Both the position numbers and the translations under genes were made by a program. The notes beneath the pieces are model-generated. The model saw nothing but the letters and a program-made list of their open reading frames with translations, was not told where the DNA came from and searched no databases. 64,000 bases of DNA from an uncultured Acidobacteriota bacterium (GTDB lineage Bacteria; Acidobacteriota; Thermoanaerobaculia; UBA5066). Below, in pieces: positions 40,710 to 64,000 of this stretch; the stretch's first letter is position 1, and every line of letters starts with the position of its first letter. The stretch spans positions 1,824,001 to 1,888,000 of the forward strand of contig CAVZYA010000001.1 of assembly GCA_963779415.1 (NCBI GenBank), given 5' to 3'.

Positions 40710-40770
40710 GGAGAAAGATTCCTCGGAAAGGCTACCACAGTCCCTCCTGCCGATCGGGAGCTGTTGCCTC
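40710..40770 (-). promoter_or_regulatory. Putative extended -10 promoter (TGgTAGCCT), copy 1 of a duplicated upstream element
   Basis: 45/61 nt identical without gaps to 42140-42200; lies upstream of the dehydrogenase gene. Confidence 0.65.
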
Positions 40771-42121
40771 AGTTTCGCGGACGGAAGACGGGCTTGACGG
40801 GGCGGCCTTCGAGGAAACGCTCGATTCCGCCGTCGAGCGCCTGACGGTAGACGCTGAGCGCCCCACCGACCGCCTCGACCGTCCGATCGATGTCGTCGTC
40901 GTGGTGGGAGAAGCTGACGACCAGTGACGGCATGAGGACGCCCCGCTTCAGGGTCTCCTGGAGAACCAGCGTCCGGAAGGCCTGCGACGCGTTTCCCTCG
41001 GCGTCCCTGGCCGCATAGACGAGATTGCAGTCCCGGCCCAACACCTGGAATTGTCCGGCGACCCCGTGCGCCCGCGCGGCCTCTTCGATGCCGGCTTTCA
41101 GCCGCGCGCCCTGGCGGTGGAGAACTTCGACGACTCCCTCGCCCTCGTAGATCCTCATCGTCTCGATCGCCGCCGCGAGCGCGTGGGTCTCGGCCCCGTG
41201 CGTCGTGGAGAGCAGAAAGACGCGCTCCTGGTCGTGGTGGAGACCGCCGCGCTCCATGAGGGCCCGCTTGCCGACGAGGGCCGAGACGGAAAAGCCGTTC
41301 GCCATCGCCTTGCCGAAGGCCGCGAGGTCCGGAACCACGCCGTAAAGCTTCTGTGCGCCGCCGAGGTGCCAGCGGAAGCCGGTAATGTTCTCGTCGAATA
41401 TCAGGACCGTTTCCTCCGCATCGCACAGGCGCCGGAGGTGCGCGAGGAACCCGGGGGCGGGCTCATGAACGGCCGCGGGCTCCAGCATCAGGCAGGCGAT
41501 CTGCCCGGGGTAGCGGCGAAACAGCGTCTCGACACTCGCGACATCGTTGTATTGGAAGGTGAGAGTCAGGGCGCGGGCGCTCTTCGGGACGCCGGCGGGC
41601 ATCGCCGTCGACCCGATGAACCAGTCGTCGATCGAGAAGAAGGGCTGATCCCCGCAGAGCGCGACGAGGTCTCGACCCGTGTGAGCCCGGGCGAGCTTGA
41701 CGGCGGCCGTCGTGGCGTCGGAGCCGTTCTTGCAGAACTTCGCCATGTCCGCCCCGTCGATCAGGCCGAGCAGCCGCTCGGCGCACTCCACCTCGACAGG
41801 AGAGGGTCGGGTGAAGTTGCTCCCGTGTCTGAGCGCCGAGCTGGCGGCCTCGACGACGGCCGGATGGGCGTGGCCGAGGGTGACGGAGCGCAGCCCCATT
41901 CCGTACTCGATGAACTCCCGTCCGTCCAGGTCCCAGACGTGACAGCCGCGGCCGCGCACGATGAAGGCGGGCGCGCCGACGGGGTACTGGTCGTCGCCCT
42001 TCGCGTACGTGTGCGCGCCTCCGGGAATGGCCGCGTGCGCCCGCGCCCGCAGCATCGCCGAGCCGGGCGACTCGATGAGTCGCCGCGCGGGATCTCCGGA
42101 CACGGGGGGCTTTGCGCTCAT
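40769..42121 (-). CDS. Class-III PLP aminotransferase, glutamate-1-semialdehyde aminomutase-like (polysaccharide-locus type, probably not HemL)
   Basis: IPGG.HT..KG, G.G..V.D.DG.E.I.Y, KNGSDATT.A..LARA.TGR, LIFDE.ITGFR, DL..FGKAMANG (PLP lysine). Confidence 0.85.
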   Translation of the reverse strand: MSAKPPVSGDPARRLIESPGSAMLRARAHAAIPGGAHTYAKGDDQYPVGAPAFIVRGRGCHVWDLDGREFIEYGMGLRSVTLGHAHPAVVEAASSALRHGSNFTRPSPVEVECAERLLGLIDGADMAKFCKNGSDATTAAVKLARAHTGRDLVALCGDQPFFSIDDWFIGSTAMPAGVPKSARALTLTFQYNDVASVETLFRRYPGQIACLMLEPAAVHEPAPGFLAHLRRLCDAEETVLIFDENITGFRWHLGGAQKLYGVVPDLAAFGKAMANGFSVSALVGKRALMERGGLHHDQERVFLLSTTHGAETHALAAAIETMRIYEGEGVVEVLHRQGARLKAGIEEAARAHGVAGQFQVLGRDCNLVYAARDAEGNASQAFRTLVLQETLKRGVLMPSLVVSFSHHDDDIDRTVEAVGGALSVYRQALDGGIERFLEGRPVKPVFRPRN

Positions 42122-44737: not shown

Positions 44738-44931
44738 AAGAATCGGCGGTCAGGCCCCTGGATGTGCCGTTCGAAATGGTCCTCCCCGGACGCCCTGGCG
44801 TGTCGCCCGTCGATGAAGACGTTGGGGCGTCCAGACCCGGGAAAGGGTGAACCACAGCGCGTCACCGGACCTTCCAGAGAAGACCCTGCCGAACCCGATC
44901 TGCCGACGCGGAAGGGATATGATTCAGTCAA

Positions 44932-48640: not shown

Positions 48641-48709
48641 GCCCTTGGCGGGTGCACGCCATCCGACGGGTACCCGACCGAGCACGGATCCTGTCAGGAT
48701 GTCCGGCCT

Positions 48710-49750
48710 TCAAATGCTGCGAGCGCTCTGATCGATTCTGCGCAGCCAGCGCAGGACCCGCAGGGTGAACGCGCGCGTCCCAAATAGCAGCACGGGAGAA
48801 GAGACGACGATCAGGGCGGCGAGACGCCCCTTGCTCCCGGACCACCGCCACGCGGCGATGATCGTCTGACGCATCAACGAACGCTCGCCGCGCGCAGCAC
48901 AGAGGATCGAACCGTCCAGAAAGAGATCGACGATTCTGGGCCAGACCGTCGGATCCCGGCGCCACGCCGTCCTCTCCAGATTTCTTGCGATTGCAAGGTG
49001 AGCCAGAGCGAAGCTCCGAGCGTCTTCGAAGGGCTTCCTGATCGAAAGCCGATCGGGGGCGTCGACCTGTACGAAGCAGAGGGCCTCGGCCCGGTGCACG
49101 ATGGCAACTTCGTGACAACCTGCCCGGACGTCGTACTCCTTGTCTTCCCAGTTCCGGAGAGGGAGCCATGCTCCAATCGCATTCACCGCCGATCGCCGCC
49201 AGACGCACGAGCCTGTCGCCCATGGCCTTCTCCACAGCACCGTGGGAAGGAACCCGTCACAGGTCGGATCCCCGCCCCGAAAGACCTCCATGGCATCCTC
49301 ACCCTTCATGGCGACCGATGCGCAGTACGCCATCCCCGCACCGGGCGAGGCGCGGAGTGCCGTCACCAGAACGTCGAGAAAACGTGGCGCCCAGAAGTCG
49401 TCCGAATCAAGGTAGGAAACGTAAGCCCCCGTTGCCACCCTCCGACCGGCCTCGCGTGCGGTGCCTGGCCCGCTGTTGGTCTCGAGCCGAAGAAGCCGTA
49501 CGGCCACGTCACGTCGCCGATCGCCGCCGGGCACGACGTAAGGCACCGGCGATGCGTCGTCGACAATCACCAACTCGATGGCGGGGTAAGTCTGCGCGAA
49601 GACCGATCTGACGGCGCGGTCCGTCAGATCCGCGCGGGCATACGTCGGAATCACGACCGTGACGACTTCGGTTCCAGCAGAAGGCACCTGGCCGGTCCCG
49701 GACGAGGGCGTCCCTTCGCAGCTAACCCTCGTGAGTTCGTCCCGCGTCAA
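48710..49750 (-). CDS. Glycosyltransferase family 2 (start uncertain)
   Basis: VTVVIPTY.R, SV.AQT, VIVDDAS, NSGPG.AR..G, YLDSDD.W, ED.EY. Confidence 0.88.
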   Translation of the reverse strand: MTRDELTRVSCEGTPSSGTGQVPSAGTEVVTVVIPTYARADLTDRAVRSVFAQTYPAIELVIVDDASPVPYVVPGGDRRRDVAVRLLRLETNSGPGTAREAGRRVATGAYVSYLDSDDFWAPRFLDVLVTALRASPGAGMAYCASVAMKGEDAMEVFRGGDPTCDGFLPTVLWRRPWATGSCVWRRSAVNAIGAWLPLRNWEDKEYDVRAGCHEVAIVHRAEALCFVQVDAPDRLSIRKPFEDARSFALAHLAIARNLERTAWRRDPTVWPRIVDLFLDGSILCAARGERSLMRQTIIAAWRWSGSKGRLAALIVVSSPVLLFGTRAFTLRVLRWLRRIDQSARSI

Positions 49751-49754: not shown

Positions 49755-51440
49755 TCACTCTCGCTCGGTCCTGCGACCGAAGGAAAGACGCGCCTTGACC
49801 CGGGAGGCCAACGCGCCGCGCAGCCTTTGCAAGGGCGATCTGGCCGGCTCGCGCAGCACCACCTCGACAATCGAGACGCCGCCCTCCCGGATCACTCGAG
49901 AGAGCGTCTCTTCGACGTCCCCTGCCAGCCTCACATAACGGGCCCCGACCGACTCCGCAAAACGGCGGAAGTCCGGATTCCGGAGTTCCGTCCCGTGAAG
50001 GTGCCCGTACGTGCCGAGCTGTTGCCCACTGATGGCGCTGTAGAGCCCGTCATTGAAGACGATCGCGGTGAGCGGTATCTCCTCGCGCACCGCCGTGAGC
50101 AGCTCGAGCCCTGAAATGGCGAAGCCGCCGTCTCCGAGGAGGGCGACCACGGTCCGGTCTGCGCGGGCGAGCCGCGCTCCGATGGCCGCCGGCAACGCGA
50201 AGCCCATTGCCTGAAGATTCGTCGGAAGGATGAGACCCCGGGGCCGGAGGACGCGAAAGTGGCGTCGCCCCAACATCTGGTGCCGGCCGGAATCGAGGAC
50301 CAGGCAGGATTCCGCGGGCATCGCACGGCGCAGGGCGGCGAAGAAGCCCTCGATCGACGCCGGCCGCCCTCCTCGAATCGTCGGCTCCGTACCACGTGGC
50401 GCCGCCTCCGTGACGCGCCGTCTCCATTGGCCGACCTCCTCCTCCGTGAAGCCCGAACCGATGGACGTCTCTGAAGACAAACGGCGGTTCAGGAGCGCCC
50501 TGATCACGGACGGGACGTCGGCGGCGAGGGTCGACGACGCGTCGTAATTCGCTCCGAGGACCGCTTCGGACGCGTCGACGTGGATCAGCCGATCCGGCGC
50601 GAGCCGAAGGCGGAAACCGTGCGCTCCGTTGTGAGAAAACTTGCAGCCCAGAGCCAGGACCAGATTCGCGCTATCGAGGAGTTCGTTCAGCAGGGGGACG
50701 CTTCCGCGATCGAAGCACAACACCCACGGGTTGTCCTCTGGTACGACACCGCGTCCCGACGTCGTCGTCACGAGCGGTGCCTTCAGGGTCTCCATGAGCT
50801 GGAGCAGCTCCGCCGCCGCGCCGTTCGCTCCCTGTCCGACGTAGAGCACGATGCGCCGCGCCCCGCACACCCGAAGTGCGATTTCGTCGACCGACGGCGC
50901 TTCTTGATGCGGACGCTCCGAGGGAGCGGGCGGCGACACCGTGCCTTCGTCCGAAAGAGTTCCGGGCGAGACCTGAACGACCACCGGTCCCGGCTCCCCG
51001 GCCCGGGAAACGGCATAGGCCTCTTCGAGCGTGGCTTCGACGCCCTCGGCGGTCCTGAGGTCGAAGACACGTTTCACCAGCGGCGCCACCACCGCCCGCT
51101 GGTCGAGTGCCTGGAGCTGGAACCGCCGGCCCGGGCCATCGGCCGGCCCCCCGACGATGTGCAGGACCGGGGCCGAATCCAGGAGAGCTTCGGCGAGCCC
51201 CGTCAGGGAATAGGTGAACCCCGGTCCCGGTATCGTCAGGAGCACGCCCGGGCGGCCCGAGGCACGCGCGTAGCCATTTGCCATGAAGGAGGCGGCCAGC
51301 TCGTGCGTTGCGACGATGGTTCGCAGACGCGATTTTCGAAGCGCCTCGAAGAGAGCGACGTTCTGCGTGCCGGGAAGACCGAAGACGGTCTCCACGCCGA
51401 GAGTCTCGAGGGCTCGACAAAGACGCTCGGCGCCGCTCAC
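49755..51440 (-). CDS. Thiamine-diphosphate-dependent enzyme, acetolactate-synthase-like
   Basis: GV..VFGLPG, HE..A.FMA.GYAR.SG.PG, GPG, G.PGPV, MGF.LP.AIGA, GDGGF…ND TPP-binding motif, PDF...A. Confidence 0.9.
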   Translation of the reverse strand: MSGAERLCRALETLGVETVFGLPGTQNVALFEALRKSRLRTIVATHELAASFMANGYARASGRPGVLLTIPGPGFTYSLTGLAEALLDSAPVLHIVGGPADGPGRRFQLQALDQRAVVAPLVKRVFDLRTAEGVEATLEEAYAVSRAGEPGPVVVQVSPGTLSDEGTVSPPAPSERPHQEAPSVDEIALRVCGARRIVLYVGQGANGAAAELLQLMETLKAPLVTTTSGRGVVPEDNPWVLCFDRGSVPLLNELLDSANLVLALGCKFSHNGAHGFRLRLAPDRLIHVDASEAVLGANYDASSTLAADVPSVIRALLNRRLSSETSIGSGFTEEEVGQWRRRVTEAAPRGTEPTIRGGRPASIEGFFAALRRAMPAESCLVLDSGRHQMLGRRHFRVLRPRGLILPTNLQAMGFALPAAIGARLARADRTVVALLGDGGFAISGLELLTAVREEIPLTAIVFNDGLYSAISGQQLGTYGHLHGTELRNPDFRRFAESVGARYVRLAGDVEETLSRVIREGGVSIVEVVLREPARSPLQRLRGALASRVKARLSFGRRTERE

Positions 51441-51450
51441 GGTCGACCCA

Positions 51451-52514
51451 TCAGGAATCCGAAGGGCGCCGACGGAGGCGGTCCGCCGACGCCGCGAGCT
51501 TCTTCCGAAGGAACTTCGTCATCTCGCGGCTTCTCCGAGCCCAGCGAAAACGCGCCGACTCGGGGCTTTCCAGAAGAAGGCACAGGTGAAGGTCGCCTCC
51601 GAGCTGAGCCTTGAAGTGGGTCACGGGGTTGAGGGGGGCGTCCGTAAGGTCGTTCGCGGTGACTCCCTGCTCCGAGAGGCGCTTGAAGACATTCCACCGG
51701 AGAAAGGCCGTGGCTCCGAGATTGAGATACTGCCCGTCCGCGGCGGCGCACACCGTGTCCGACATGGTATTCGCGCCGACGAGAACCAGCTGGGTCGACA
51801 CCGACGGTCCCTGAGGCAGCCGGGCGTGGAACAGGCGGGCGAGGCCCCGGGATCTCAGGCGTCCGAAGAAACGCTCGAACGCCGCCCGGGGAAGGTAGAG
51901 GCGGACGCCCTTCCGCTCGTGAATCTGGGAGTGGAGGCGAAAGAAGCTGTCGAAGTCGTCATCCTCCGTCACGGAAAGGCCTTCGCGACCCGCCCGCTCC
52001 ACGAGCCGCCTGAGGTTCTGCTCCACGCGCGCCCAGAGCAGGTCCAGGTCCGAAAGTGGGACGGCATAGCTGTACTGAAGGCTTGCCGTCCAGCCTCTCG
52101 CGAGAAGAACCCGGACGTCGGTGATGGAGCTCCGGCATCGCAGCGCGATGTGGCCGTAGCCCCGGGCGGCGAGACCACTCGCCAGCGCCTCGAGGATTTC
52201 GTTCTGCCGCGAGGTCCGTTGGGAGGGGTAGCGGGTCTCGAAAGGCCGCAGGAGGATCCCGTTGTAGTAGAGAAGGAGCCGCGGCGAGACGTACGTTCCC
52301 AGACGCGACGTCCGCTCGTAGACGGCGACCCCACCGAGGATCTCGTCGCCCTTTTCGACGGCCAGAATGCGATAGCTCCCCCCGCCGCCTCGCAGAGGGC
52401 TTCGAGGTACTCGGGGGTGCTGTAGACGGCGCCCTGCGCCGACCGGGAGACCAGCTGGTTCCACGCCGGATAGTCGGCCTCCGCGAGGAACCGACTGGCG
52501 AGCCCTGCTCTCAA
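51451..52514 (-). CDS. GNAT-fold protein (FemAB/Acetyltransf_6-like), frameshift in a G-run at ~52380
   Basis: W..LV..S.QG.VY.TPEYL N-terminus (ORF 51969-52514); then Y.G, LRR....A...G, F..L, L.W, FK.Q.GG C-terminal Fem-like motif. Confidence 0.8.
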
Positions 52515-53725
52515 CCGTCGAGCCTCTGCCGGCTCTGCTTCCTGATCCAGGAGCAGAAGCTGACGATCCCGGGCACGGGATCTTTCCAGGTGAAGTACGG
52601 CTCATACGCTCCGATCCAGGATCGAATCAGGGACCAGCCGCTCACGGCCTGCTTCCTCCACTCGGCGAGCCCGCTCTGCAGATCGAGCCGCGGGTAGACA
52701 CAACGTCGTCCGAGCCGATATTCCCGGACAGGCTCGACCTCGCCGCCGAGAGCGTCACGGTAGGCCATCTCGCAGACGTCGATGCCGCAGCGGGCGGCGA
52801 AGTCCACGTACCACCACGGCCGGGCATTCACCTCCAGGATCTTGTACAGACCGTCCCGATCGTCGAGCTTGAACTCCGCGCTGAAGACACCGTGATACCC
52901 GATTTCGCTCAGGAGCCGCGTGATCGTCTCCACCGCTCCGGCCACTTCGCCCAGCGGAATGGTCACGCAAAGGGTGCTGTTGCCAAACAATTCCGGGAAC
53001 ATCCGGACTCGCCGGCGCGCGAGGAGGCCGCAGATCCGTCCGCGCCGGTCCACGAAGCCTTCGACGAAGACGTGACGCGTCGGAGGACCGGGGATGAACT
53101 CCTGAAGCATCACCGTCAGACCGTTCGCGGAGGCATCCTGGAGCAGCCGGAGTGCGTCTGCGCGATCCGTGAAGCGGAGCGCTTTTGCCCCGTAGAATTT
53201 GGCAAAGGCCGTCGACTGGTTCGGTTTCACGAAGTAGTCCTGCAGCCGATCGGCCGGAACCTCTTCGAGCGCCGCCGCGTCACGGAGGACGACTGTCCTG
53301 GGATGAGGGAGGCCCAATCTCGTGAGCGTTTCGGCGAAGACGGCCTTGTCCACCAGCTGCCTGAGAGTCCCGGGAGGAGCCACGCTGCTCGGAAAGCGGG
53401 TCGCAAGCTCCGGCTTCAGCCGGCTGACCGCCATGGCCCACGCGTCCGAGCAGGGCAGGAGGACCATTCGGCTGATGGTCAGCGACTCGAGCCGCGAACC
53501 GAGGTTCTCTTCGGAGAACTCGTCCGGGCCTTCCTCGGGCAAGGTCCGATACCAGCGCGAGCGGGTGATCTCGCCGACGCGAGCGCCTGTCACGTACAGG
53601 GGCACGCCGCGTCTTCCGAGGCAGCGCACGGCCCCGAGTACCGTGAGGCCGCGCCCGAGGATCAAGACCGGCACCGCATGGCGCCGGTTCGCGCCGTCAG
53701 GCTCCCCGGCCGTCGAAGAGCTCAT
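52511..53725 (-). CDS. ATP-grasp carboxylate-amine ligase (D-aspartate-ligase-like)
   Basis: LG.VR.LGR.GV, SRW, LLP.SD, DK..F.....GLP.P.T, VKP, QEFIPG, EFK.D.RDG.YKILEVNAR.W, D..P. Confidence 0.85.
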   Translation of the reverse strand: MSSSTAGEPDGANRRHAVPVLILGRGLTVLGAVRCLGRRGVPLYVTGARVGEITRSRWYRTLPEEGPDEFSEENLGSRLESLTISRMVLLPCSDAWAMAVSRLKPELATRFPSSVAPPGTLRQLVDKAVFAETLTRLGLPHPRTVVLRDAAALEEVPADRLQDYFVKPNQSTAFAKFYGAKALRFTDRADALRLLQDASANGLTVMLQEFIPGPPTRHVFVEGFVDRRGRICGLLARRRVRMFPELFGNSTLCVTIPLGEVAGAVETITRLLSEIGYHGVFSAEFKLDDRDGLYKILEVNARPWWYVDFAARCGIDVCEMAYRDALGGEVEPVREYRLGRRCVYPRLDLQSGLAEWRKQAVSGWSLIRSWIGAYEPYFTWKDPVPGIVSFCSWIRKQSRQRLDG

Positions 53726-53743
53726 CCCGCTTCCCGTCGCGGC

Positions 53744-53832
53744 AGTCTACACACTCCGACGACGAACCGTCGGCTGCCCCGTCGCGCCCGGTGCGCCACG
53801 AGCCGCTGTCGCCGTCTTCCCGATGGTATGAT
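53744..53832. promoter_or_regulatory. Divergent promoter pair: TAGACT (-) for the ATP-grasp operon and TGgTATGAT (+) for wzc
   Basis: Near-consensus -10 hexamers at ~53744-53749 (minus) and 53827-53832 (plus, with extended TG) in otherwise GC-rich intergenic DNA. Confidence 0.55.
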
Positions 53833-53919
53833 TTCCGGGGTTATATCCGGCGTCCCGGCTGAAGTGTGCGGAAGGCGTGTCCTCCCGGCTCCATGAAGCC
53901 GTCCGCCGCAGGGAGACTA

Positions 53920-56217
53920 GTGCCGATGCCGAGTCTGGAGCTCGAAGAAGAGACGCTGAATCGCCCGTCCGAGCCCGAGGTACATCTCGCGGACCTGTGG
54001 CGTGTCGTGGTCCAGCACCGCGGGCTGGTCATCGGGTCCGTCGTCCTTTGTCTCGCCACGGCGTGGGTGGTCGCCTTCCTGACGAGGCCGATGTTCCGCG
54101 CTTCGACGCTCCTTGCCCTCGAACAGGAACGCGATAATCCCCTGGACATCGCCGCGAGCGTGGCGCGTCAGCGCGGCCCGGACGCCATCTCGGTCGAGAC
54201 CGAGTCGCGGCTCATGAAGAGCCGCGATGTGCTCGAGCGCGTCGTGAGGAAGCTGAGCCTCGCCGAGTCGGCTCCCAAGCAGGAGACGACGAGCGCCAAT
54301 GGCACGCCGGCCGCCACCGCGCCGGCTTCCGACATCGATCCCGTCGCGGAGGCCGCCCTGGGCCTGCAAGAGAGCGTCGACATTCGGCCCGTACGAGGCA
54401 CGGAGCTCATCGAGATCCTGGTCACGGCGCATTCCGCCCGGAAAGCCGCCGACCTCGCCAATGCGGTGGCCGACGCCTACGTCTCCTGGAAGCTCGAGTC
54501 GAGGTTCCGGCTGCTGGGCCAGGCCTCCGAGTTCCTCACGAGCCAGATCGAAGATGCCAAGTCGGCTCTCGCGCAGAAGGAGGAGCGTCTCCTCGCCTTC
54601 GGCCGGCGGAAAGACATCCTGAGCACCGACCTCCAGAGCGGATCAGCGGCCGCGAAGGTCGATGCCCTCGCGCGCGACCTCGCCGCGGCTACGGCCGACC
54701 GGATCTCGAAAGAGGCCCGCGAAGCGGAGCTTCGAAACGCACGTCCCGAAACGCTCGCCGACTCGATTTCGGGCGGCCTCGTCCCGCAGCTTCGGGCCGA
54801 TCAGGCCCGCCTCGAGCGCGAATACCAGGCCAAGCTCGACGTCTACAAGCCCGACTGGCCCGCCATGCGGCAGCTCAAGGCCCAGATCGAGAAGGACCGC
54901 CAGAATCTCGACCTCGCCATCCAGGAAGCCGTCCGAAAGGCACGCGAATCCGCGCATTCCGACGTCCTCGTCGCGCAGCGCCGCGAGGACATTCTCCGGA
55001 GCGCCCTGCAGACCCAGCGCTCCCAGGCGATGGCAGGCAACGCCGACGCCGTCGAGTACAGCAACCTGAAGGTGGAGACCGACACCCAGCGGGCGCTCGT
55101 CGACAACCTTCTGAAGCGGCAGGCGGAGATCCAGGTCCTGACCCGCGTCGAGGGCGAACGCGTCTCGAACGTCCGGATCGTGGAGCGGGCCCTTCCGCCC
55201 GGCTCGCGCTTCCGCCCCTCCTATCGTCTCAACAGCCTCGTCGGGCTGGCCTGCGGCCTGTTGCTCGGCGTGGGGCTCGCCTTCATGGCCGACTACATGG
55301 ATCGGAGCCTGCGGACTCCGGAGCATGTGAGCCGGTACCTGAAGCTCCCGGTTCTCGGAATCATCCCGGCCGCCGACGGGGTTACGGAAGGGGTCTACGC
55401 ATCCCCCTCGCCTGCCGACGCCTCTGCTACCCGCAAGAAGTCCAGGCCGAACGCTCTTCGTGTGAAGGCCGTGAAGGCACAGAAGACCCCCCTCGAGCTT
55501 CTTCCTCACACGCTTCCCCGCTCCACGGTGGCCGAGGCCTACCGCGCCCTCCGGACGTCCCTTCTCCTCTCCACGGCCGACCGTCCCCGCTCCGTCGTCG
55601 TCACGTCGGCCATCCCTCTCGAAGGGAAGACGACGACGGCGACGAACCTCGCCGTCGTCCTTTCGCAGCTCGGAAAGAAGGTTCTCCTCGTCGATGCGGA
55701 CCTCCACCGGTCACGCCTCCACGAGATCTTCCAGGTCTCGAACGTCGTCGGCCTGGTCACCGTGCTCACCGGACTGAGCGACACCGGAACGGCCGTCCAC
55801 GGGACCGAGATACCGGGCCTGTTCGTTCTCCCGGCCGGTCCGAATCCGCCGAACCCGTCGGGGCTCCTCTCCTCAGACAGAATGCTCGAGTTCCTCAACA
55901 GCGCATTGGCCGAGTACGACTTCGTCGTTCTCGACACCCCGCCGGCTCTCGTGCTCGCCGACGCCGTCCTCGTCGGGCATCTGAGCGACGGCATCATCCT
56001 GACCGTTCGGGCCGGCAGCACGCCGCGCGAACAGGTCGTCCGGGCCCGGGACGAACTCCGCCGGGGAAATGGCCGGATCCTCGGGGTCGTTCTCAACGCG
56101 CTGAAGGACGAAAGTGGCGACATCACGTACCGCGAGCGGTACGGCGCCCGCTACTACCAGGGTACGGCGAGTCCAGCCGAGACCGCCGAGACGCCGTCCG
56201 CCGTCAAGACGACTTAG
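53920..56217 (+). CDS. wzc: Polysaccharide co-polymerase / BY tyrosine autokinase (Wzc/GumC)
   Basis: Wzz-like N-terminal TM, coiled-coil periplasmic region, second TM, AEAYR.LRT, Walker [23 protein letters not shown]-terminal Tyr cluster [10 protein letters not shown]; start 53893-53926. Confidence 0.94.
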
Positions 56218-56233
56218 AGCGAGCGGGAGCCAG

Positions 56234-57298
56234 ATGCGACTCCTCGTCACCGGCCATCTCGGCTACATCGGCACGGTGCTCGTGCCGATGCTCCGGGCCG
56301 AGGGGCACGACGTCGTCGGCCTCGACAGCGCCCTTTTCGAGCGGTGCACCTTCGGCGATCCGCCGCAGACGGTGCCGGAGATCCGGAAGGACATCCGGGA
56401 CGTCCGGCTCCCTGACGTCCAGGGCTTCGACGCGGTGATCCATCTCGCGGCCCTCTCGAACGACCCTCTGGGAAACCTCGACCCCGACCTGACCTACGAC
56501 ATCAACCACAAGGCTTCGGTTCGTCTGGCCGAGCTGTGCAAGCAGGCGAAGGTCGCCCGCTTCCTCTTCTCCTCCTCTTGCAGCCTTTACGGAGCGGCGG
56601 GCGAGAGTCCCGTGGACGAGCATGCCCCCTTCAACCCCGTCACGCCCTACGGCCACTCCAAAGTGCTCGTCGAGCGGGATGTCGCCCGACTGGCCGACTC
56701 GAGCTTCAGCCCGGTCTTTCTCCGAAACGCGACGGCCTACGGTGTCTCGCCGCGACACCGGTTCGACATCGTGCTGAACAACCTGGTCGCGTGGGCCTTT
56801 ACGACGGGCCGCGTCCACATCAAGAGCGACGGCACGCCCTGGCGCCCCATCGTGCACGTCGAGGACATCTCACGGGCGTTCCTCGCGGCGCTCACGGCCC
56901 CCCGCGACGTCATTCACAACGAAGCCTTCAACGTCGGGCAGGACGGCGAGAACCACCAGGTCCGTGACCTCGCCGAGCTGGTCCACCAGGTCGTGCCGGG
57001 GTGCACGATCGAGTACGCCGCGGACGCCGGACCGGACAAGCGAAGCTACCGCGTCGACTTCGGAAAGATCTCGAGGCTCCTCCCCGCGTTCAAGCCCGAA
57101 TGGAATGCCCGGCGGGGCGCCGTCCAGCTCTATGAAGCGTATCGCCGAACAGGGGTCCGGCTCGACGAGTTCGAAGGCCCGCGATACCGCCGGATCGACC
57201 ATATCCAGGAACTCATCCGCTCCGGCGTTCTCGGCCGCGACCTTCGAAGAACGAGCCCCATCGCCGCCCCCGCTGCGGAGCCCGGCCGGAGCGAATGA
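56234..57298 (+). CDS. NAD-dependent sugar epimerase/dehydratase (extended SDR)
   Basis: [55 protein letters not shown]. Confidence 0.9.
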
Positions 57299-58558
57299 CC
57301 TCGGACACCGGCACGGGACCCGGGCCTCGAACGCTCTGCCGGTTCTGCCGGGCGCCGCTCACCCGGACCTTCGCCGACCTCGGGATGTCTCCCCTGTGCG
57401 AAAGCTACGTGACCGCCGATCGGCTCGACGAGATGGAGCCTTTCTTCCCGCTTCACGTCTGGGTCTGCTCGCGATGCTTCCTGGTCCAGCTGGGGGAGTA
57501 CGTCTCCCCCGCGGAGATCTTTTCGGAATACGCCTACTTCTCCTCCTACTCGGAGTCGTGGGTGCGGCACGCGAAGGCCTATGCCGATCGGATGGCGCAG
57601 CGGCTCGGTCTCGGCGCCGGCAGCCGGGTCGTCGAAGTCGCCAGCAACGACGGGTACCTCCTGCAGCACTTCGCGGCGAGCGGGATTCCCGTCCTCGGAA
57701 TCGAGCCGGCGACGAACGTGGCGGCGCGCGCGATCGAACGGGGGATTCCCACGATCGAGCGATTCTTCGGACCGGAGCTGGCGCGGGAGCTGGCGTCCGA
57801 CGGGAGGCAGGCCGACCTCATCGTCGGGAACAACGTCCTCGCCCACGTTCCCGATCTGAACGGCTTCGTGGACGGCCTCCGCATCCTCCTGAAGCCTTCC
57901 GGCACGATCACGATGGAGTTCCCGCATCTCTGGCGGCTGATGGACGAGAACCAGTTCGACACGATCTACCACGAGCACTTTTCGTATCTTCTCGCTTCTC
58001 GTCGCCGAGAAGGTCTTCGCCGCGCACGACATGACGGTCTTCGACGTGGAGGAACTGTCGACCCACGGAGGCTCGCTTCGCGTCTACGCCCGGCACCGGG
58101 CGGACTCCTCGCGACCCGTGACGGCGGCCGTCGAGACCCTCAGGAGCCGGGAGAGGAGCGCGGGCTTCGAGAACCTCGAGCACTATGACGGCTTCATGCC
58201 GAGGGTGGCCGAGACGAAGCGGCGCCTCCTCGGCTTCCTCATCGAGGCGAAGGAGCGTGGAATGTCGGTCGCGGCCTACGGTGCCCCCGGCAAGGGGAAC
58301 ACCCTTCTGAACTATTGCGGGATCCGGACGGATTTCCTCGAATATGCGGTCGACAGGAACCCCTACAAGCAGGGCAAGTTCCTGCCGGGAACCCACATTC
58401 CAATCTTTCCCGTGGAGAAGCTCGACGAGACGCGGCCGGACTACGTGCTCATCCTTCCATGGAACCTGAAGGACGAGATCGTGAAACAGATGACCCGGGT
58501 GCGAGGCTGGGGAGGCCGCTTCGTCGTCCCGATCCCCCGGGTGGAGATCATCGAATGA
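57295..58558 (+). CDS. NDP-hexose C-methyltransferase (NovU/TylCIII-like), frameshift at ~57988
   Basis: Zn-binding CRFC...[35 protein letters not shown] (restored by removing one base), [37 protein letters not shown]. Confidence 0.92.
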
Positions 58559-59113
58559 ACTTTCATCCTCTCGAGGTCTCCGGGGCCTTCCTGATCGAAC
58601 CGCAGCCGATCCCCGACGAGCGGGGTTTCTTTGCGAGGCTCTGGTGTCAGAAGGATTTCGAGGACCGCGGACTCGATCGGGCGCATCGTCCAGTGCAGCC
58701 AGTCCTTCAACGCGAGAAAGGGAACCCTGAGGGGCCTTCACTACCAGCTCCCGCCGCATGCCGAGGCGAAGGTCGTCCGGTGCCTGAAGGGAGCGATCTA
58801 CGACGTCGTCCTCGACCTGCGGCCCGAGTCCCCGACCTTCAGGAAATTCGCGGCGATCACCCTCACGTCGGAGAATCGGTCGATGGCGTACGTGCCAAAA
58901 GGGTGTGCGCACGGGTTCCAGACACTCGAGGACGAAACCGAGGTCCTTTACCTGATTTCGGAGCTCTACCGGCCTGACCATGCCCGCGGCGTTCGGTGGG
59001 ACGATCCGGCGTTCCAGATTCCATGGCCGCCGGGGGAGAAGATCCTGAACGATCGGGATCGAAGCTATCCCGACTACCGCCCCCTGGAAGGCGGAACGTC
59101 CGATGGGCGCTGA
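58555..59113 (+). CDS. rfbC: NDP-4-keto-6-deoxyhexose 3,5-epimerase (RmlC/RfbC family), frameshift at ~58680
   Basis: DERGFFAR, GTLRGLHYQ, E.K.VRC..G.I.DV..DLR..SPT, P.G.AHGFQTL, G.RWDDP...I.WP, D. Confidence 0.9.
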
Positions 59114-60413
59114 ACCTCGTCCGAGCCCCGTTCCGGCGAGCCTCGGCGCCGAGATGCACGAGCTGATTTCGGAGCTGTACCCGATCTGCCGCAGCATCAC
59201 GGGCGCCGGATTCCGCGAGACGCTCCGGCGTATCGACCGGCTCGTGCCGCTGAAGATGCACGAGGTGCCGACCGGAACGAAAGTATTCGATTGGACCGTG
59301 CCGAGGGAGTGGAACATCCGTGACGCGTACGTCAAGGACGGCGCGGGTCGCCGCGTCATCGATTTCCGGACGTCCAACCTCCACGTCGTCAACTACAGCG
59401 TTCCGATCCGCGCCACGCTGACCCGCGCCGAGCTGGAGGAGCACCTCTTCTCCATACCCGAGCATCCGGACTGGATTCCGTACCGCACGACCTACTACGA
59501 GGAATCGTGGGGCTTCTGCCTGAGCCACAACCAGCTTCTCGAGATGAAGGACGAGAGCTACGAGGTTTTCATCGATTCCTCGCTCGAGAAGGGCCACCTG
59601 ACCTGGGGCGAGACCTTCCTTGAAGGCGCGACCGACGAGGAGGTCCTGATCACGTGCCACGCCTGTCATCCGTCCCTGTGCAACGACAATCTGTCCGGCG
59701 TGGCGGTGGCCGCATATCTGGCCCGAGCCCTGGAGGGGACCCCTCACCGCTTCTCCTACCGGTTCCTGTTCATTCCGGGGACGATCGGATCGATCACGTG
59801 GCTCGCCCTCAACGAAGACAAGGTCCACCGGATACGGCACGGCCTCGTTCTGGCGCTTCTGGGCGACGCAGGCCCGTTCACGTACAAGCGGTCCCGGCGC
59901 GGCGATGCCGAGATCGACCGTGTCGCCGCTTACGTCCTGGGAACCCTGCCGGGCGGGCACCGCGTCCGCGACTTCACCCCCTGGGGCTACGACGAGCGAC
60001 AGTTCTGCTCGCCCGGCTTCAACCTCCCCGTCGGCAGCCTCATGAGGACGCCGAATGGAGAGTTTCCCGAATATCACACCTCTGCGGACAACCTCGACTT
60101 CGTGACGCCCGTCCGCCTCGCGGAGTCGTACGCGCTCTGCCTTTCCATCATCGACGTTCTCGAGAATAACGTGCGATACACGAGCCGGAACCCGAAGTGC
60201 GAGCCCCAGCTGGGGCGCCGCGGCCTCTATCGTCCGATGGGGGGTGACGCGATGTCGCCGGAGTCCGGGATGGCCCTCCTGTGGGTCCTCAACCAGTCGG
60301 ACGGAAGCCGCACCCTTCTCGACATCGCGGAGCGCTCCCGGCTTCCCTTCGACGCGATTCGATCGGCCGCGGACGCTCTCCGGGAGAACGGCCTTCTCGA
60401 GACGTGCCAGTGA
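59103..60413 (+). CDS. DUF4910-family protein (M28 aminopeptidase-like fold with C-terminal winged helix)
   Basis: LYPICRSITG.G.R.TL, FDWTVP.EWN, LHVVNYS, IPYRT.YY...WGFC, H.CHPSL.NDNLSG, DERQ.CSPG, EYHTSADNL, P.CEPQLG.RGLY. Confidence 0.9.
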   Translation: MGAEPRPSPVPASLGAEMHELISELYPICRSITGAGFRETLRRIDRLVPLKMHEVPTGTKVFDWTVPREWNIRDAYVKDGAGRRVIDFRTSNLHVVNYSVPIRATLTRAELEEHLFSIPEHPDWIPYRTTYYEESWGFCLSHNQLLEMKDESYEVFIDSSLEKGHLTWGETFLEGATDEEVLITCHACHPSLCNDNLSGVAVAAYLARALEGTPHRFSYRFLFIPGTIGSITWLALNEDKVHRIRHGLVLALLGDAGPFTYKRSRRGDAEIDRVAAYVLGTLPGGHRVRDFTPWGYDERQFCSPGFNLPVGSLMRTPNGEFPEYHTSADNLDFVTPVRLAESYALCLSIIDVLENNVRYTSRNPKCEPQLGRRGLYRPMGGDAMSPESGMALLWVLNQSDGSRTLLDIAERSRLPFDAIRSAADALRENGLLETCQ

Positions 60414-60482
60414 CCTCGACGCCCGTGACGTTCATTACGCCGGGGTTTTGCGCGATACTTCCCTGGGTCACGACGTGAGGAT

Positions 60483-61268
60483 ATGAAAGTCGTTCTCTTC
60501 TGCGGCGGCCTCGGCATGAGGCTGAAAGAGTTCTCGGAGAGCATTCCGAAGCCTCTCGTCACGATCGGCCTCCGGCCCCTCCTCTGGCACGTCATGAAGT
60601 ACTACGCCCATTTCGGGCACAAGGACTTCATCCTCTGCCTCGGATACCGGGCCGACCTGATCAAGGACTATTTCCTCAAGTACGACGAGTGCCTGTCGAA
60701 CGACTTCATCCTGTCGGGCGACGGCGGCGGCGTCCAGCTCCTCGACCGCGACATCCATGACTGGAAGATCACCTTCGTCGACACCGGCCTGAATTCGAAC
60801 GTCGCCCAGCGTCTCAAAGCCGTCGAAAAACATCTCGCCGGCGAAGAGGTGTTTCTCGCGAACTACGCCGACGGGCTTACCGACTTCCCGCTTCCGCGGC
60901 TGATCGAGCAGTTCGCGAAGTCGGGCAGCGTGGCGAGCTTCCTCGGCGTCCGTCCAAGCCAGACCTTCCACGTCGTGACGATGGCGGACGACCACCGCGT
61001 CACCGCCATCCAGGACGTGACCCAGGCCGGCCTCTGGGTCAACGGAGGCTTCTTCGTGATGCGGCAGTCCATCTTCGACTACATCGGGCCCGGCGAGGAG
61101 CTGGTTCAGGAACCCTTCCAGAGGTTGATCAACGAAAGAAGGCTGACCGCTCACCGATACGACGGCTTTTTCGTCGCCATGGACACGTTCAAGGACAAGC
61201 AAATTCTCGACGAGCTGTACTCCCGGGGCGACGCGCCCTGGGAGGTCTGGAAGACGGCAGGAAAGTAG
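60483..61268 (+). CDS. rfbF: Glucose-1-phosphate cytidylyltransferase
   Basis: MKVVLFCGGLG.RL....PKP, H.MKYY..FGH.DF.LCLGY, W.ITFVDTG, Y.DG, NGGFF, MDT.KD, APW.VW; GAGGA RBS. Confidence 0.9.
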   Translation: MKVVLFCGGLGMRLKEFSESIPKPLVTIGLRPLLWHVMKYYAHFGHKDFILCLGYRADLIKDYFLKYDECLSNDFILSGDGGGVQLLDRDIHDWKITFVDTGLNSNVAQRLKAVEKHLAGEEVFLANYADGLTDFPLPRLIEQFAKSGSVASFLGVRPSQTFHVVTMADDHRVTAIQDVTQAGLWVNGGFFVMRQSIFDYIGPGEELVQEPFQRLINERRLTAHRYDGFFVAMDTFKDKQILDELYSRGDAPWEVWKTAGK

Positions 61269-61280
61269 TCGACGCACGAG

Positions 61281-61934
61281 ATGATGCCGTTCCAGTTCGC
61301 CCGGAGCCGCCGCGCCGCCCTTCGCATCCTCTGTCTCGGCGCCCACAGCGACGACATCGAGATCGGCTGCGGGGGTACGCTCTTGCGTCTCCTCGAGACG
61401 TACACGAACGTCACCTGCCGCTGGGTCGTCTTCACGGCGGAGGGGCCGCGGGCGCGGGAAGCTCGCGCAGGGGCCCGCCGGTTCCTGCGCGGGGCCGCCG
61501 AAGCAGCCGTGACGCTCCACACGTTCCGGAACGGCTACTTCCCGTCCCTGGCGGCCGACATCAAGACGGCCTTCGAGGAGCTGAAGAGGACCGTCTCGCC
61601 TGACCTCATCTTCACCAATTACCGCGGCGATCTTCACCAGGACCATCGGACGATCGCCGAGCTGACCTGGAACACGTTCCGGGATCACACGATCCTCGAG
61701 TACGAGGTTCCGAAGTACGACGGAGATCTCGGCGCACCCAACCTCTTCTTTCAGCTCGACGGCCGGACGGCCCGCCGGAAGGCCCGGCTTCTCATGCAGA
61801 CGTTCGGGACGCAGAGAGGGAAGGACTGGTTCACCGAAGACACGTTTCTGGCCCTCATGAGACTTCGCGGCATGGAGTGCCGCGCGCCGGGGCGCTTCGC
61901 CGAGGCCTTCTACTGTCGGAAGGCTGTCCTGTAA
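61281..61934 (+). CDS. PIG-L/LmbE-family deacetylase
   Basis: GAHSDDIEIGCGG and D.HQDH metal motifs, ILEYE.P, EAF. Confidence 0.9.
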   Translation: MMPFQFARSRRAALRILCLGAHSDDIEIGCGGTLLRLLETYTNVTCRWVVFTAEGPRAREARAGARRFLRGAAEAAVTLHTFRNGYFPSLAADIKTAFEELKRTVSPDLIFTNYRGDLHQDHRTIAELTWNTFRDHTILEYEVPKYDGDLGAPNLFFQLDGRTARRKARLLMQTFGTQRGKDWFTEDTFLALMRLRGMECRAPGRFAEAFYCRKAVL

Positions 61935-61951
61935 GAGGAACCGGACGCCTG

Positions 61952-62980
61952 ATGCGACCCGGCACTGCGGTCTCACGCATACTCGATCTCCGGGCCGGCG
62001 ACCTCGTCGAGGTTCGCAGCCGCGAGGAGATCCTCGCCACGCTGGACCCATACGCAAGGCTCGATGCCCTTCCCTTCATGCCGGAGATGTTCCAGTATTG
62101 CGGTAATCGCTACCGCGTCTTCAAGCGGGCCGACAAGACGTGCGACACCATCACCGATACCGGGACGCGCCGGCTCTTCAATACCGTCCATCTGGAAGGC
62201 CTTCGTTGTGACGGCCGGGCCCATGGCGGCTGCCAGGCTCTCTGCTTCCTCTTCTGGAAGGAAGCGTGGCTGAGGCGAGTTCCGCCGCACGCCCCTCTCC
62301 CGCCTTCGGAGGCGCCTCCGGCGGAACGATGCACGGAGGAAGCGGTTTTCGCAGCAACCCGTGTCCACGCCCGCGCGGGCGCGCTTTCCGAGGAGCGCTT
62401 CTCCTGTCAGGCCACGGAACTTCTCCGCGCGACCTCCCCTCTCGCCTGGTGGGACGTCCGCCAGTACGCAAGAGACGTCCGCTCCCGGAACATCCGGATG
62501 CGGGACCTCATGCGCGGCGTCGCCCTCGGAGTCTTCAACACCATCCAGCGGCGCCGCGGCGGCACGACTTATCCCTATGTGAAGGGTCCGCTCACCAGAA
62601 CCCCGGCCGCGACGCTCGACCTCCGTCCCGGCGAGGTCGTCCGCGTGAAGCCGCTTGCCGAGATCCGCAACACACTCGACACGCGCCGGCGTAATCGCGG
62701 CCTCAAGTTCGACGTCGAGATGGTCCGATACTGCGGAAGAACCCTCCGGGTCCTTGCGCGTGTCGAGCGCATCATCAACGACAGGACCGGGACGATGATC
62801 TCCCTGCCGAAAGACTGCATCGTTCTCGAAGGGGCGACGTGCCTCGGCCACCTCAGTGTCACCCCGAACCGCCTTTTCTGCCCTCGCAGCATCTATGCGT
62901 TCTGGCGCGAGATCTGGCTGGAGCGCGTCGATCCGCCAGAGCCCCCACGGGCATCGTCGTCATTCGGTGAGAACACGTGA
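61952..62980 (+). CDS. Conserved hypothetical protein with two tandem Cys-containing domains
   Basis: Internal repeat: LRAGDLVEVRS..EILATLD…F.PEM..YCG…V.LEG..C.G…C…FWKEAWLRRV versus LRPGEVVRVK…EI..TLD…F..EM..YCG…I.LEG..C.G…C…FWREIWLERV. Confidence 0.8.
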   Translation: MRPGTAVSRILDLRAGDLVEVRSREEILATLDPYARLDALPFMPEMFQYCGNRYRVFKRADKTCDTITDTGTRRLFNTVHLEGLRCDGRAHGGCQALCFLFWKEAWLRRVPPHAPLPPSEAPPAERCTEEAVFAATRVHARAGALSEERFSCQATELLRATSPLAWWDVRQYARDVRSRNIRMRDLMRGVALGVFNTIQRRRGGTTYPYVKGPLTRTPAATLDLRPGEVVRVKPLAEIRNTLDTRRRNRGLKFDVEMVRYCGRTLRVLARVERIINDRTGTMISLPKDCIVLEGATCLGHLSVTPNRLFCPRSIYAFWREIWLERVDPPEPPRASSSFGENT

Positions 62981-64000
62981 CCGCCGGCACCGAGCCGCTC
63001 CTCAGCGTCGTGACGCCCGTCTACAACGGCGAGCCCTACCTTCGCGAGTGCATCGAAAGCATCCTCGCCCAGACGTATCTCAACTGGGACTACACGATCG
63101 TCAACAATTGCAGTCAGGACCGTACGCGCGAGATCGCCGAAGAGTATGCAGCGCGCGATCCCCGGATACGGGTCCATAACAACCCGCACTTTGTCGGTCA
63201 AATCGCCAACTACAACATTGCCGTGCGCCGGATCTCACCCGACAGCAAGTACTGCAAGGTCGTTGCCGCCGACGACTGGCTCTTCCCCGAGTGCCTCTCA
63301 CGGATGGTGGAGGTTGCCGAGGAAAACCCCACGGTCGCCATCGTGGGCGCGTACGTCCTCAGCGAAACGACAGTCAGGCCGGAGGGACTCCCTTACCCAA
63401 GTACATGTGTCCCTGGTCGCGACATCTGTCGCCAACGCCTCCTGGGGGGCCCTTTCCGATTCGGCACTCCAACCGCCGTCCTCTACAGATCGGACGTTGT
63501 TCGGTCGGCCGATGCGTTCTTCAACGAGTTCAATCTCCACTCCGACATGGAGGTGTTTTTTCAGATCCTTCGAGATCACGATTTCGGCTTCGTTCATCAG
63601 GTACTGACCTTTAATCGGATTCGGGAGGGATCGGAAACCTCCAATTCCGAAAGGCTGAACACCGAGCTTCCCGGGATGCTGTATCACCTTCTCACGTACG
63701 GTCCGGTCTATCTGAGCCGGCAAGAGGCTGCCGAACGCGTTGCAATGCACTTGAAACGTTATTATGCGGTTCTGGCTGAAAGCGTCTTTCAGCGTCGCGA
63801 CCGCGAATTCTTGGCTTTTCACAAGGAGAAGTTTCGTGAGCTGGGGTGTCCCCTCAGCTATTCTCGCCTTGGTGGCGTCATGGTCCTGCGGCTCCTCGAC
63901 CTGCTTCTGAATCCCAAACGCGCCGTCGAGGCCCTGTGGCGTCACGGCGGGGGATATCTCAGAAAGAAGGGCGCTGAAACTGCGACCGGGATGCACGAAG
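62977..64000 (+). CDS. Glycosyltransferase family 2 (runs off the right edge)
   Basis: Manual translation from GTG 62977: …PLLSVVTPVYNGEPYLRECIESILAQTY…NNCSQDRT…AADD.L.P.CL…; GTGA overlap with the upstream stop; no stop seen in the window. Confidence 0.9.
   Translation, partial: MTAGTEPLLSVVTPVYNGEPYLRECIESILAQTYLNWDYTIVNNCSQDRTREIAEEYAARDPRIRVHNNPHFVGQIANYNIAVRRISPDSKYCKVVAADDWLFPECLSRMVEVAEENPTVAIVGAYVLSETTVRPEGLPYPSTCVPGRDICRQRLLGGPFRFGTPTAVLYRSDVVRSADAFFNEFNLHSDMEVFFQILRDHDFGFVHQVLTFNRIREGSETSNSERLNTELPGMLYHLLTYGPVYLSRQEAAERVAMHLKRYYAVLAESVFQRRDREFLAFHKEKFRELGCPLSYSRLGGVMVLRLLDLLLNPKRAVEALWRHGGGYLRKKGAETATGMHE

Follow-up and report, generated by a model that had tools for sequence, protein, structure and literature searches.

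A seven-gene cassette (56234–62980) in a 64-kb stretch of contig CAVZYA010000001.1, from an uncultured Acidobacteriota bacterium, adds one more instance to a widespread gene set, known from earlier work and biochemically unsolved. The whole 64-kb stretch is referred to below as the window, and coordinates are positions within it. The cassette encodes a short-chain dehydrogenase/reductase (SDR), a sugar C-methyltransferase, an RmlC-like cupin epimerase, a DUF4910 protein, an RfbF-like nucleotidyltransferase, a PIG-L-family amidase and a Cys-rich repeat protein. To judge from the families encoded, the set plausibly makes a nucleotide-activated (probably cytidine diphosphate, CDP-linked) hexose with a C-methyl branch, destined for a surface polysaccharide and most likely an amino sugar, a reading on which confidence and doubt are about evenly balanced. 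A preliminary description of the window had likewise proposed a C-methyl-branched, nucleotide-activated sugar destined for a surface glycan, and this is the most economical reading of the gene content. Its premise of a nucleoside diphosphate (NDP)-4-keto-6-deoxyhexose, on the other hand, lacks the enzyme: no CDP-glucose 4,6-dehydratase (RfbG) is encoded in the 64-kb window, and a true RfbG is found at only 3 of the 80 related loci described below.

The gene set across genomes

A DUF4910 alignment was scanned against species-representative genomes, giving at least 600 matches, of which the best 80 (57–66% identity) were kept. Neighbouring genes were counted at each locus by tblastn with the window proteins and by unbiased clustering of all open reading frames (ORFs); 34 of the 80 loci had full 10-kb flanks (Table 1). 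The record titles of the loci name about 13 phyla. The sample is biased towards the DUF4910 subfamily of the window, and neither these loci nor the plasmid records considered below are phylogenetically independent.

Table 1. Gene families found at the DUF4910 loci
Family	All loci	Loci with full 10-kb flanks
C-methyltransferase	62/80	30/34
RmlC-like	59/80	25/34
RfbF, either kind	53/80	27/34
SDR	50/80	24/34
PIG-L	38/80	23/34
Class-III aminotransferase	9/80	6/34
Cys-repeat protein	8/80	4/34
True RfbG	3/80	1/34

The C-methyltransferase and RmlC genes flank or adjoin the DUF4910 gene in most of the 80 loci. Other genes nearby encode Wzm and Wzt (19 loci each), family-2 glycosyltransferases (GT2; 18), a second SDR (16) and a family without a Pfam match (14). 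Wzc, Wzm/Wzt, Wzx and surface-glycan glycosyltransferases are among the genes to which the cassette is linked, and the particular GT2 family that follows it in the window occurs at 8 of the 80 loci. A family of about 315 residues with no match in Pfam or NCBIfam directly adjoins DUF4910 at 14 of the 80 loci (e.g., L045:9007–9948) and has no member in the window.

DUF4910 is present in 42 records of a collection of plasmids and chromids; identity is 50% or more in 35 of these, and in 34 of the 35 a C-methyltransferase lies within 5 kb of DUF4910. The full seven-gene set, with no RfbG in the stretch examined, is present in Sinorhizobium fredii NGR234 (pNGR234b, about 1330.8–1343.0 kb), Roseateles XES5 and Streptomyces KN37. 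As a check on the cassette, the preliminary description proposed to look for DUF4910 together with the C-methyltransferase, RfbF, PIG-L and a glutamate-1-semialdehyde (GSA) aminomutase-like aminotransferase; this co-occurrence is seen both in the 80 loci and in the plasmid records. C-methyltransferases without DUF4910 adjoin rfbG in at least six records (Bacillus cereus, Bacillus sp. N5-665, Sinorhizobium sp. K101 and C101, Cupriavidus and Peteryoungia), and no DUF4910 record was found among 60 of the 128 rfbG records. The presence of rfbG beside C-methyltransferases that lack DUF4910 makes its absence from the DUF4910 loci look systematic.

This gene neighbourhood has been reported before. 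Das et al. (2014, BMC Bioinformatics 15:75; PMC4000134) solved the structure of CA_C2195 (3K9T), tied the family to sugar-modifying genes and proposed that DUF4910 carries out transacylation to, or deacylation of, an amino sugar. Additional file 1 of that paper (PMC4000134) gives essentially the same cassette for Streptomyces ipomoeae, Chroococcidiopsis, Kuenenia and Haliscomenobacter, comprising a sugar C-methyltransferase, an rfbC-type epimerase, a sugar-phosphate nucleotidyltransferase, an N-deacetylase, an SDR and a sugar aminotransferase or GSA aminomutase; Additional file 2 mentions cytidylyltransferase 118 times, aminomutase 61 times and LmbE 24 times. The preliminary description had named the set as its best candidate for an undescribed pathway; the neighbourhood as such is already in the main text and Additional file 1 of Das et al. 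(PMC4000134). Its suggestion that DUF4910 or PIG-L could add or exchange an N-acyl or aminoacyl group is anticipated in part, since for DUF4910 the transfer or amidase idea is already in that paper. The window locus has the same DUF4910 family and the same neighbouring genes as the published loci (PMC4000134), and differs from them in carrying two frameshifted genes and in the position of its aminotransferase, 17 kb away. No product and no reaction are given in that paper, and the parts of it considered here make no mention of the missing 4,6-dehydratase, the two classes of RfbF or the predominance of aminotransferase fusions. In the open-access literature, neither a published pathway or biochemical assignment explaining the set nor a later functional study of the DUF4910/CA_C2195 family was found.

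Encoded proteins

The DUF4910 protein has the PF16254, PF09940 and PF16221 architecture of the DUF4910/CA_C2195 family, including its one-zinc site at H189/D195/H324, and by its match to 3K9T (E 1.2e-152) is a one-zinc, M28-like fold. Residues H189, S191, D195, P225 and H325 are invariant in the DUF4910 alignment and agree with the ligands of the single zinc, S191 and P225 replacing the catalytic Asp and Glu of M28 peptidases (PMC4000134, section 6). The family is large, with at least 8000 homologues at E 1e-10, and the closest relatives are 80–89% identical to the window protein. Fifty-nine homologues are longer than 763 residues, and 31 of them carry an Aminotran_3 domain (PF00202), with the domain order DUF4910 then aminotransferase in P0128 and P0162. 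Eight of the 59 carry C-methyltransferase domains, and one of these eight proteins (P0135) may be a gene-calling artefact. In further fusions (P0144, P0171 and P0176–P0178) the partner of DUF4910 is a carbamoyltransferase, a formyltransferase together with an AAC(3)-type N-acetyltransferase, or a set of AMP-binding and carrier-protein domains. The carbamoyl-, formyl-/AAC(3)-type acetyl- and AMP-binding/carrier partners are all amine-decorating enzymes.

The C-terminal HTH_47 domain, the missing M28 catalytic pair (PMC4000134, section 6) and the protein-directed functions that Das et al. list as alternatives (PMC4000134) would all suit a DUF4910 protein that is no sugar-pathway enzyme, acting instead as a regulator or scaffold through its winged-helix domain, or as a peptidase on a glycosylated protein. 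Such a role is highly improbable for a protein that retains 57–66% identity across phyla together with an invariant zinc site, whose gene is embedded among enzyme genes with overlapping stop and start codons, and which is found fused to aminotransferases, C-methyltransferases and acyltransferases; nor is there a conserved target-protein gene across the 80 loci.

A class-III aminotransferase encoded at some distance from the cassette (Table 2) belongs, on sequence relationships, to the DUF4910 set, because its family is fused to DUF4910 in the 31 long forms just described and, in 28 of the 35 plasmid/chromid records, is encoded no more than 10 kb from DUF4910. The preliminary description had suggested that it could aminate the cassette's sugar, and the window enzyme is indeed an orthologue of the fused and adjacent forms, sharing 61% identity with the aminotransferase half of P0128 and 63% with the product of the gene beside DUF4910 in L038. 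It scores 225 bits against the HemL model TIGR00713, below the cut-off of 527, and passes NF004856 instead (Table 2). Its gene heads a minus-strand run (36164–42121) that also encodes a TviB-like nucleotide-sugar 6-dehydrogenase (TIGR03026, 414 bits), a TviC-like 4-epimerase (267 bits), Wzm and Wzt. The idea that the aminotransferase aminates a C6 aldehyde from this neighbouring UDP-sugar 6-dehydrogenase was dropped. The dehydrogenase passes TIGR03026 and retains the Cys of its GGHC motif, which we take to be the catalytic Cys of such enzymes; the TviC-like 4-epimerase that follows gives a normal uronic-acid module, and UDP-glucose dehydrogenase-family genes are present at 4 of the 80 loci.

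The SDR is GalE-like and, as far as its motifs and model scores indicate, not a 4,6-dehydratase. It scores 21 bits on the RfbG model TIGR02622 (cut-off 278), and the SDR of L024 has no match to that model at E 1e-10. The protein carries the motifs SSSCSLYG and YGHSK, and the Asp/Glu acid/base pair of the dehydratases is absent from the window copy and from the whole family (SSSCSxYG). Among solved structures it is nearest to 6VO6/6VO8 (E 3.8e-29), with MoeE5 (7e-24) and the UDP-sugar 4-epimerases further off, and the stretch ATxxG(V/I)SPRxRxD is common to the SDR and 6VO6. The enzyme is proposed to be a C4 oxidoreductase of an NDP-sugar.

The three-domain architecture of the C-methyltransferase is complete (zinc ribbon PF08421, class I methyltransferase core and C-terminal PF08484), and is spread over two frames, with a frame change at about 57987–57988. 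Its translation shows CxxC...CxxC and YHEHFSY, presumably the zinc and catalytic motifs of this enzyme type. Relatives include MtmC, KijD1 and TcaB9, and the L024 orthologue matches 4RV9 at 294 bits. The C-terminal piece of the RmlC-like protein scores 172 bits on PF00908 and, for that piece alone, 135 bits on TIGR01221 (cut-off 156), a cut-off that the intact L024 orthologue passes with 193 bits.

The RfbF-like protein falls under the equivalog cut-off of TIGR02623 (300.25 bits; Table 2) and aligns over its full length with the solved enzyme 1TZF (residues 2–257 on 4–259). The protein is assigned as a sugar-1-phosphate transferase, probably a cytidylyltransferase. Proteins at least 50% identical to it are encoded at 39 of the 80 loci, with PIG-L alongside in 37 of the 39 and RfbG in 2 of them. 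At 15 loci the nucleotidyltransferase is merely 22–40% identical to that of the window and PIG-L is never present (0/15); the L024 copy, the only one of this group that was scored, is a true RfbF by TIGR02623 (379.5 bits). The preliminary description listed the window protein as RfbF, an enzyme that makes CDP-glucose; the protein belongs to a separate clade, nearly always paired with PIG-L, and scores below the model cut-off. A clearly remodelled substrate pocket was considered for this clade and dropped, given that the two kinds differ at 5 class-specific positions and that the change of K179 to V relative to 1TZF is not conserved in the clade.

The PIG-L protein scores above the PF02585 gathering threshold and contains AHSDD and HQDH, which correspond to AHxDD and HxxH, the metal-binding motifs of PIG-L/LmbE N-deacetylases. 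Its best solved relative is BshB (6P2T, E 2.5e-6), and it is a probable metal amidase of the N-deacetylase type. It appears as a stand-alone protein, with no convincing fusion to a partner in the best 150 of 4521 representatives.

The internal repeat ascribed earlier to the Cys-rich protein is real: two repeats of about 110 residues have halves that are 36% identical over 110 residues (E 2e-18). The protein has at least 7940 homologues, all of them unnamed proteins, the closest from named organisms being in Vicinamibacteraceae and Luteitalea. No sequence match was found in Pfam, NCBIfam or PDB; a profile of the family gave a best E of 0.96 against PDB sequences, and scattered Pfam matches at E 0.016 or higher in 1–2 of 31 members. 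The gene adjoins the GT2 family of the window in 4 of 9 instances (window included), and Wzx or Wzt elsewhere. Its inclusion in the cassette is not upheld, as it occurs at 8 of the 80 loci (4 of 34 with full flanks) and stands outside the conserved sugar set. The protein is loosely linked to the set and probably takes part in glycan assembly instead of sugar synthesis.

Proposed pathway and alternatives

Gene content, protein families, linkage across phyla, fusions and the lack of a canonical dehydratase suggest the following steps, their order, the nucleotide, the starter and the product. The RfbF-like enzyme would activate a hexose-1-phosphate with CTP, and the PIG-L amidase would strip an N-acetyl group, a step that points to a GlcNAc-type starter in the PIG-L-paired clade. 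The GalE-like SDR would oxidise C4 with the 6-OH kept, like Cj1427, the C4-dehydrogenase of the Campylobacter heptose route, and unlike a 4,6-dehydratase. The C-methyltransferase would then methylate a carbon adjacent to the keto group, most likely C3, the RmlC-like cupin would epimerise C5 and possibly C3 too, and the class-III aminotransferase would turn a carbonyl into an amine. DUF4910 could act on an amino or keto intermediate, making or breaking an amide or providing a Lewis-acid step, and the GT2 would transfer the finished sugar, perhaps with the Cys-repeat protein. Two observations favour C4 oxidation without 6-deoxygenation, namely the systematic absence of a 4,6-dehydratase and an SDR that resembles 4-epimerases and C4-dehydrogenases; the sugar may therefore keep its 6-OH.

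Parts of this scheme resemble known systems. Antibiotic C-methylation (TylCIII/EryBIII, MtmC, TcaB9, KijD1) uses the same C-methyltransferase family with the same three-domain architecture, and in the L-mycarose route C-methylation is followed by a 5-epimerase and an SDR, an order akin to that of the cassette. The antibiotic routes differ in that they use dTDP sugars and RmlB-type 4,6-dehydratases, often with 2-deoxygenation, and yield secondary metabolites, whereas the cassette here is linked to a surface glycan. Aminoglycoside tailoring employs a PIG-L-type 2'-N-acetylparomamine deacetylase and a class-III 6'-aminotransferase, again a PIG-L-family GlcNAc deacetylase and a GSA-aminomutase-like aminotransferase on one sugar, although the substrate is a pseudodisaccharide and not an NDP-sugar. 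A DAO-type oxidase partner of the aminoglycoside style is encoded at just 8 of the 80 loci. The role of TylCIII is described in PMC3539893, where virenose is the subject of an in-silico study, and 3-C-methyl-D-mannose has been reported in a Helicobacter pylori O-antigen (PMC12961483).

The GDP-heptose route of Campylobacter jejuni proceeds through the C4-dehydrogenase Cj1427, the cupin C3/C5-epimerase Cj1430 and the C4-reductase Cj1428 (PMC10680097, PMC9978623). It is alike in forming a 4-keto sugar without 6-deoxygenation, which is then handled by an RmlC-like cupin (PMC10680097, PMC9978623); it differs in its nucleotide (GDP, against probably CDP here) and its sugar, and neither C-methylation nor DUF4910, PIG-L or an aminotransferase is part of it.

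A different and unlikely account of the genes is a conventional route to a CDP-6-deoxy-3-C-methylhexose, like those to cereose/cillose or vinelose, with its 4,6-dehydratase encoded elsewhere. RfbF would then make CDP-glucose, the C-methyltransferase, RmlC-like enzyme and SDR (as a 4-ketoreductase) would finish the sugar, and DUF4910, PIG-L and the aminotransferase would serve another sugar of the same glycan. CDP-vinelose of Azotobacter is a precedent for a branched surface sugar. The CDP-cereose/CDP-cillose operon of B. cereus, reportedly described by Li and co-workers in 2017, is said to make a CDP-linked 3-C-methyl surface sugar with RfbF, a TylCIII-type C-methyltransferase and an SDR, as might be the case here, and to differ in having the CDP-glucose 4,6-dehydratase and in being without the RmlC-like enzyme, DUF4910, PIG-L and the aminotransferase. 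The C-methyltransferase/RmlC/SDR triad corresponds to the final three steps in known routes to branched deoxysugars, with the matches to MtmC, KijD1 and TcaB9 already mentioned, and the 15 loci with a more distant RfbF, like the nearly unchanged pocket of the RfbF-like protein, also fit such a route. PMC7725333 counts CDP-cereose and CDP-cillose among the known pathways. However, RfbG is rare at the DUF4910 loci, even where both flanks are complete (Table 1), and stands right beside the C-methyltransferases that lack DUF4910; the Bacillus C-methyltransferases of the plasmid collection adjoin rfbG, and the cassette here has none. The fusion of DUF4910 to C-methyltransferase domains in 8 of the 59 long forms, and its usual position between or beside the C-methyltransferase and RmlC genes, also argue against assigning it to another sugar.

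Several points weigh against the favoured scheme. The whole chemistry rests on sequence comparison for every protein of the set. The SDR bears only a modest likeness to 6VO6, at 105 bits and about 30% identity, and 6VO6 is assumed here to be Cj1427, the Campylobacter GDP-heptose C4-dehydrogenase. The genome could also carry a dehydratase gene at another place. The RfbF-like clade is separated from true RfbF by just 5 class-specific positions, so that a changed starter sugar is weakly founded. The aminotransferase gene is 17 kb from the cassette and heads an operon whose TviB- and TviC-like genes are possibly its true partners; its family is within 10 kb of DUF4910 at just 9 of the 80 loci, and many of the plasmid records are close strains, so that the 28 of 35 amount to 9 genera with the aminotransferase and 4 without. 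Finally, the C-methyltransferase and RmlC-like genes are both frameshifted in the window, and the pathway may consequently not run in this organism.

It is quite unlikely that all parts of a bolder version hold jointly, in which the cassette would be a so far undescribed way to C-branched amino hexoses retaining the 6-OH. There, a Cj1427-like SDR would oxidise C4 of a CDP-hexosamine, the C-methyltransferase and cupin would remodel the sugar, and the GSA-like aminotransferase would aminate it, its by-product 2-oxoglutarate being able to re-oxidise SDR-bound NADH. DUF4910 would perform a zinc-dependent reaction on the nucleotide sugar, for instance forming an amide or lactam on the new amine or catalysing the ketol rearrangement of a tertiary alpha-ketol; to our knowledge, no M28-fold protein is known for such a reaction. 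If this were true, surface glycans of cyanobacteria, acidobacteria, rhizobia and actinomycetes would commonly contain the product, a building block so far overlooked.

The interest of the set lies in its cross-genome pattern; the window adds another, possibly damaged copy and little more. DUF4910 proteins are numerous, strongly conserved across phyla and structurally solved, with a reaction still to be assigned. The carriers are soil and water bacteria that include tractable models (S. fredii NGR234, Rhizobium etli, Nostoc punctiforme and Streptomyces). Solving the cassette would name a probably widespread surface sugar and assign a new reaction to the M28 fold. It would also set right routine annotations across thousands of genomes, 'glutamate-1-semialdehyde aminomutase', 'glucose-1-phosphate cytidylyltransferase' and 'dTDP-4-dehydrorhamnose 3,5-epimerase' among them.

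Gene layout, frameshifts and surroundings

The seven cassette genes are co-oriented on the plus strand, preceded by wzc and continuing into the GT2 gene (Table 2). This layout, with its overlapping stop and start codons, was correctly given in the preliminary description, as were the coordinates and the list of genes. A correction applies to the start of the Cys-repeat gene, which the database gene call places at the ATG at 61952 (342 residues) and not at 61877; the end at 62980 stands.

Table 2. Features of the wzc-to-GT2 run and the distant aminotransferase gene
Feature	Coordinates	Strand	Family evidence	Remark
Wzc-type chain-length determinant / tyrosine autokinase	53866..56217	+	Pfam Wzz, GNVR, AAA_31; TIGR01007 171 bits vs cut-off 108	context, opens co-oriented run
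GalE-like SDR	56234..57298	+	PF01370 161 bits	
NDP-hexose C-methyltransferase, TylCIII/MtmC/TcaB9 type	57295..58558	+	PF08421, PF13489, PF08484	split in two frames
RmlC-like cupin epimerase	58555..59113	+	PF00908	split in two frames
DUF4910/DUF2172/HTH_47 protein	59103..60413	+	PF16254 376 bits; PF09940, PF16221	
RfbF-like sugar-1-phosphate nucleotidyltransferase	60483..61268	+	TIGR02623 209 bits; 1TZF 168 bits	
PIG-L/LmbE-family metal amidase	61281..61934	+	PF02585 48 bits vs cut-off 28	
Cys-rich two-repeat protein	61952..62980	+	no Pfam family	342 aa
Family-2 glycosyltransferase (GT2)	62977..63999	+	PF00535 112 bits	runs off window end
Class-III (GSA-aminomutase-like) aminotransferase	40769..42121	-	NF004856 704 bits vs cut-off 486	

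Intergenic gaps in the wzc-to-GT2 run are at most 69 nt, and four junctions overlap. The SDR gene starts 16 nt after the end of wzc, the start of the C-methyltransferase overlaps the SDR stop, the start of the RmlC-like gene overlaps the C-methyltransferase stop, the DUF4910 and RmlC-like genes overlap by 11 nt, and the GT2 start (62977) overlaps the end of the Cys-repeat gene (62980). No promoter- or terminator-like sites above shuffled expectation were found in the region 53000–64000.

The preliminary description did not note that two of the seven genes, those of the C-methyltransferase and the RmlC-like protein, are each frameshifted in this sequence; the other five are intact. In the C-methyltransferase gene, PF08421 and the methyltransferase core (PF13489) are in the frame of 57295 and PF08484 (225 bits) is in the frame of 58031–58558. 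By tblastn with the intact orthologues of L024 and L038, frame 1 is followed to 57990 and frame 2 from 57980, with no residue missing and 59–67% identity, which fits one extra base at about 57987–57988, within TATCTTC and not in a homopolymer. In the RmlC-like gene, PF00908 profile positions 2–39 are in one frame and 39–165 in the next; the same two orthologues follow frame 1 to 58680 and frame 2 from 58682, again with no residue missing, and the DNA reads as one extra G in the GGG run at 58679–58681. Programmed frameshifting is unlikely, as no motif is common to the two sites and neither contains a slippery run.

It is possible, if on balance somewhat doubtful, that the cassette is a decaying remnant in this organism, with both frameshifts being real mutations and no branched sugar made. 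Two single-base insertions in adjacent genes speak for such a remnant, as does the position of the C-methyltransferase insertion outside any homopolymer run. A third single-base indel is present in the UDP-GlcNAc 2-epimerase gene (PF02350; 17098–18269, minus strand), where the lack of one C at about 17567 shifts the reading from one frame to another. Apart from one base each, however, the two cassette genes are undamaged (55–71% identity to orthologues over the full length, with no stops in the proper frames), the remaining five genes are intact, and three scattered single-base indels in 64 kb also fit assembly error; the 2.18-Mb length of the contig hints at a long-read assembly.

A divergent trio of genes upstream of wzc (49758–53746, minus strand) encodes an acetolactate-synthase-like thiamine diphosphate (ThDP, TPP) enzyme, a FemAB-like GNAT protein and an ATP-grasp-like protein. 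In other systems ThDP enzymes form acyl-branched sugars (PMC9306805). The three genes were considered as members of the cassette and rejected, with tblastn matches at 0, 0 and 1 of the 80 loci, respectively.

The G+C content of the window is about 65%. It is lower in the region 42200–49700 (0.60–0.63 at 42–48 kb), where long ORFs (e.g., 42296–44047, minus strand, and 47372–48637, plus strand) have no match in Pfam or NCBIfam. An ORF of 668 residues amid glycosyltransferase genes (30751–32754, minus strand) gives weak matches of the asparagine-synthase or PEP-CTERM amidotransferase kind, which at 54 and 47 bits fall far short of the cut-offs; asparagine synthase genes are also among the DUF4910 neighbours in Additional file 1 of Das et al. 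(PMC4000134). The window holds ABC-transporter (Wzm, Wzt) as well as Wzy/Wzc-type export genes.

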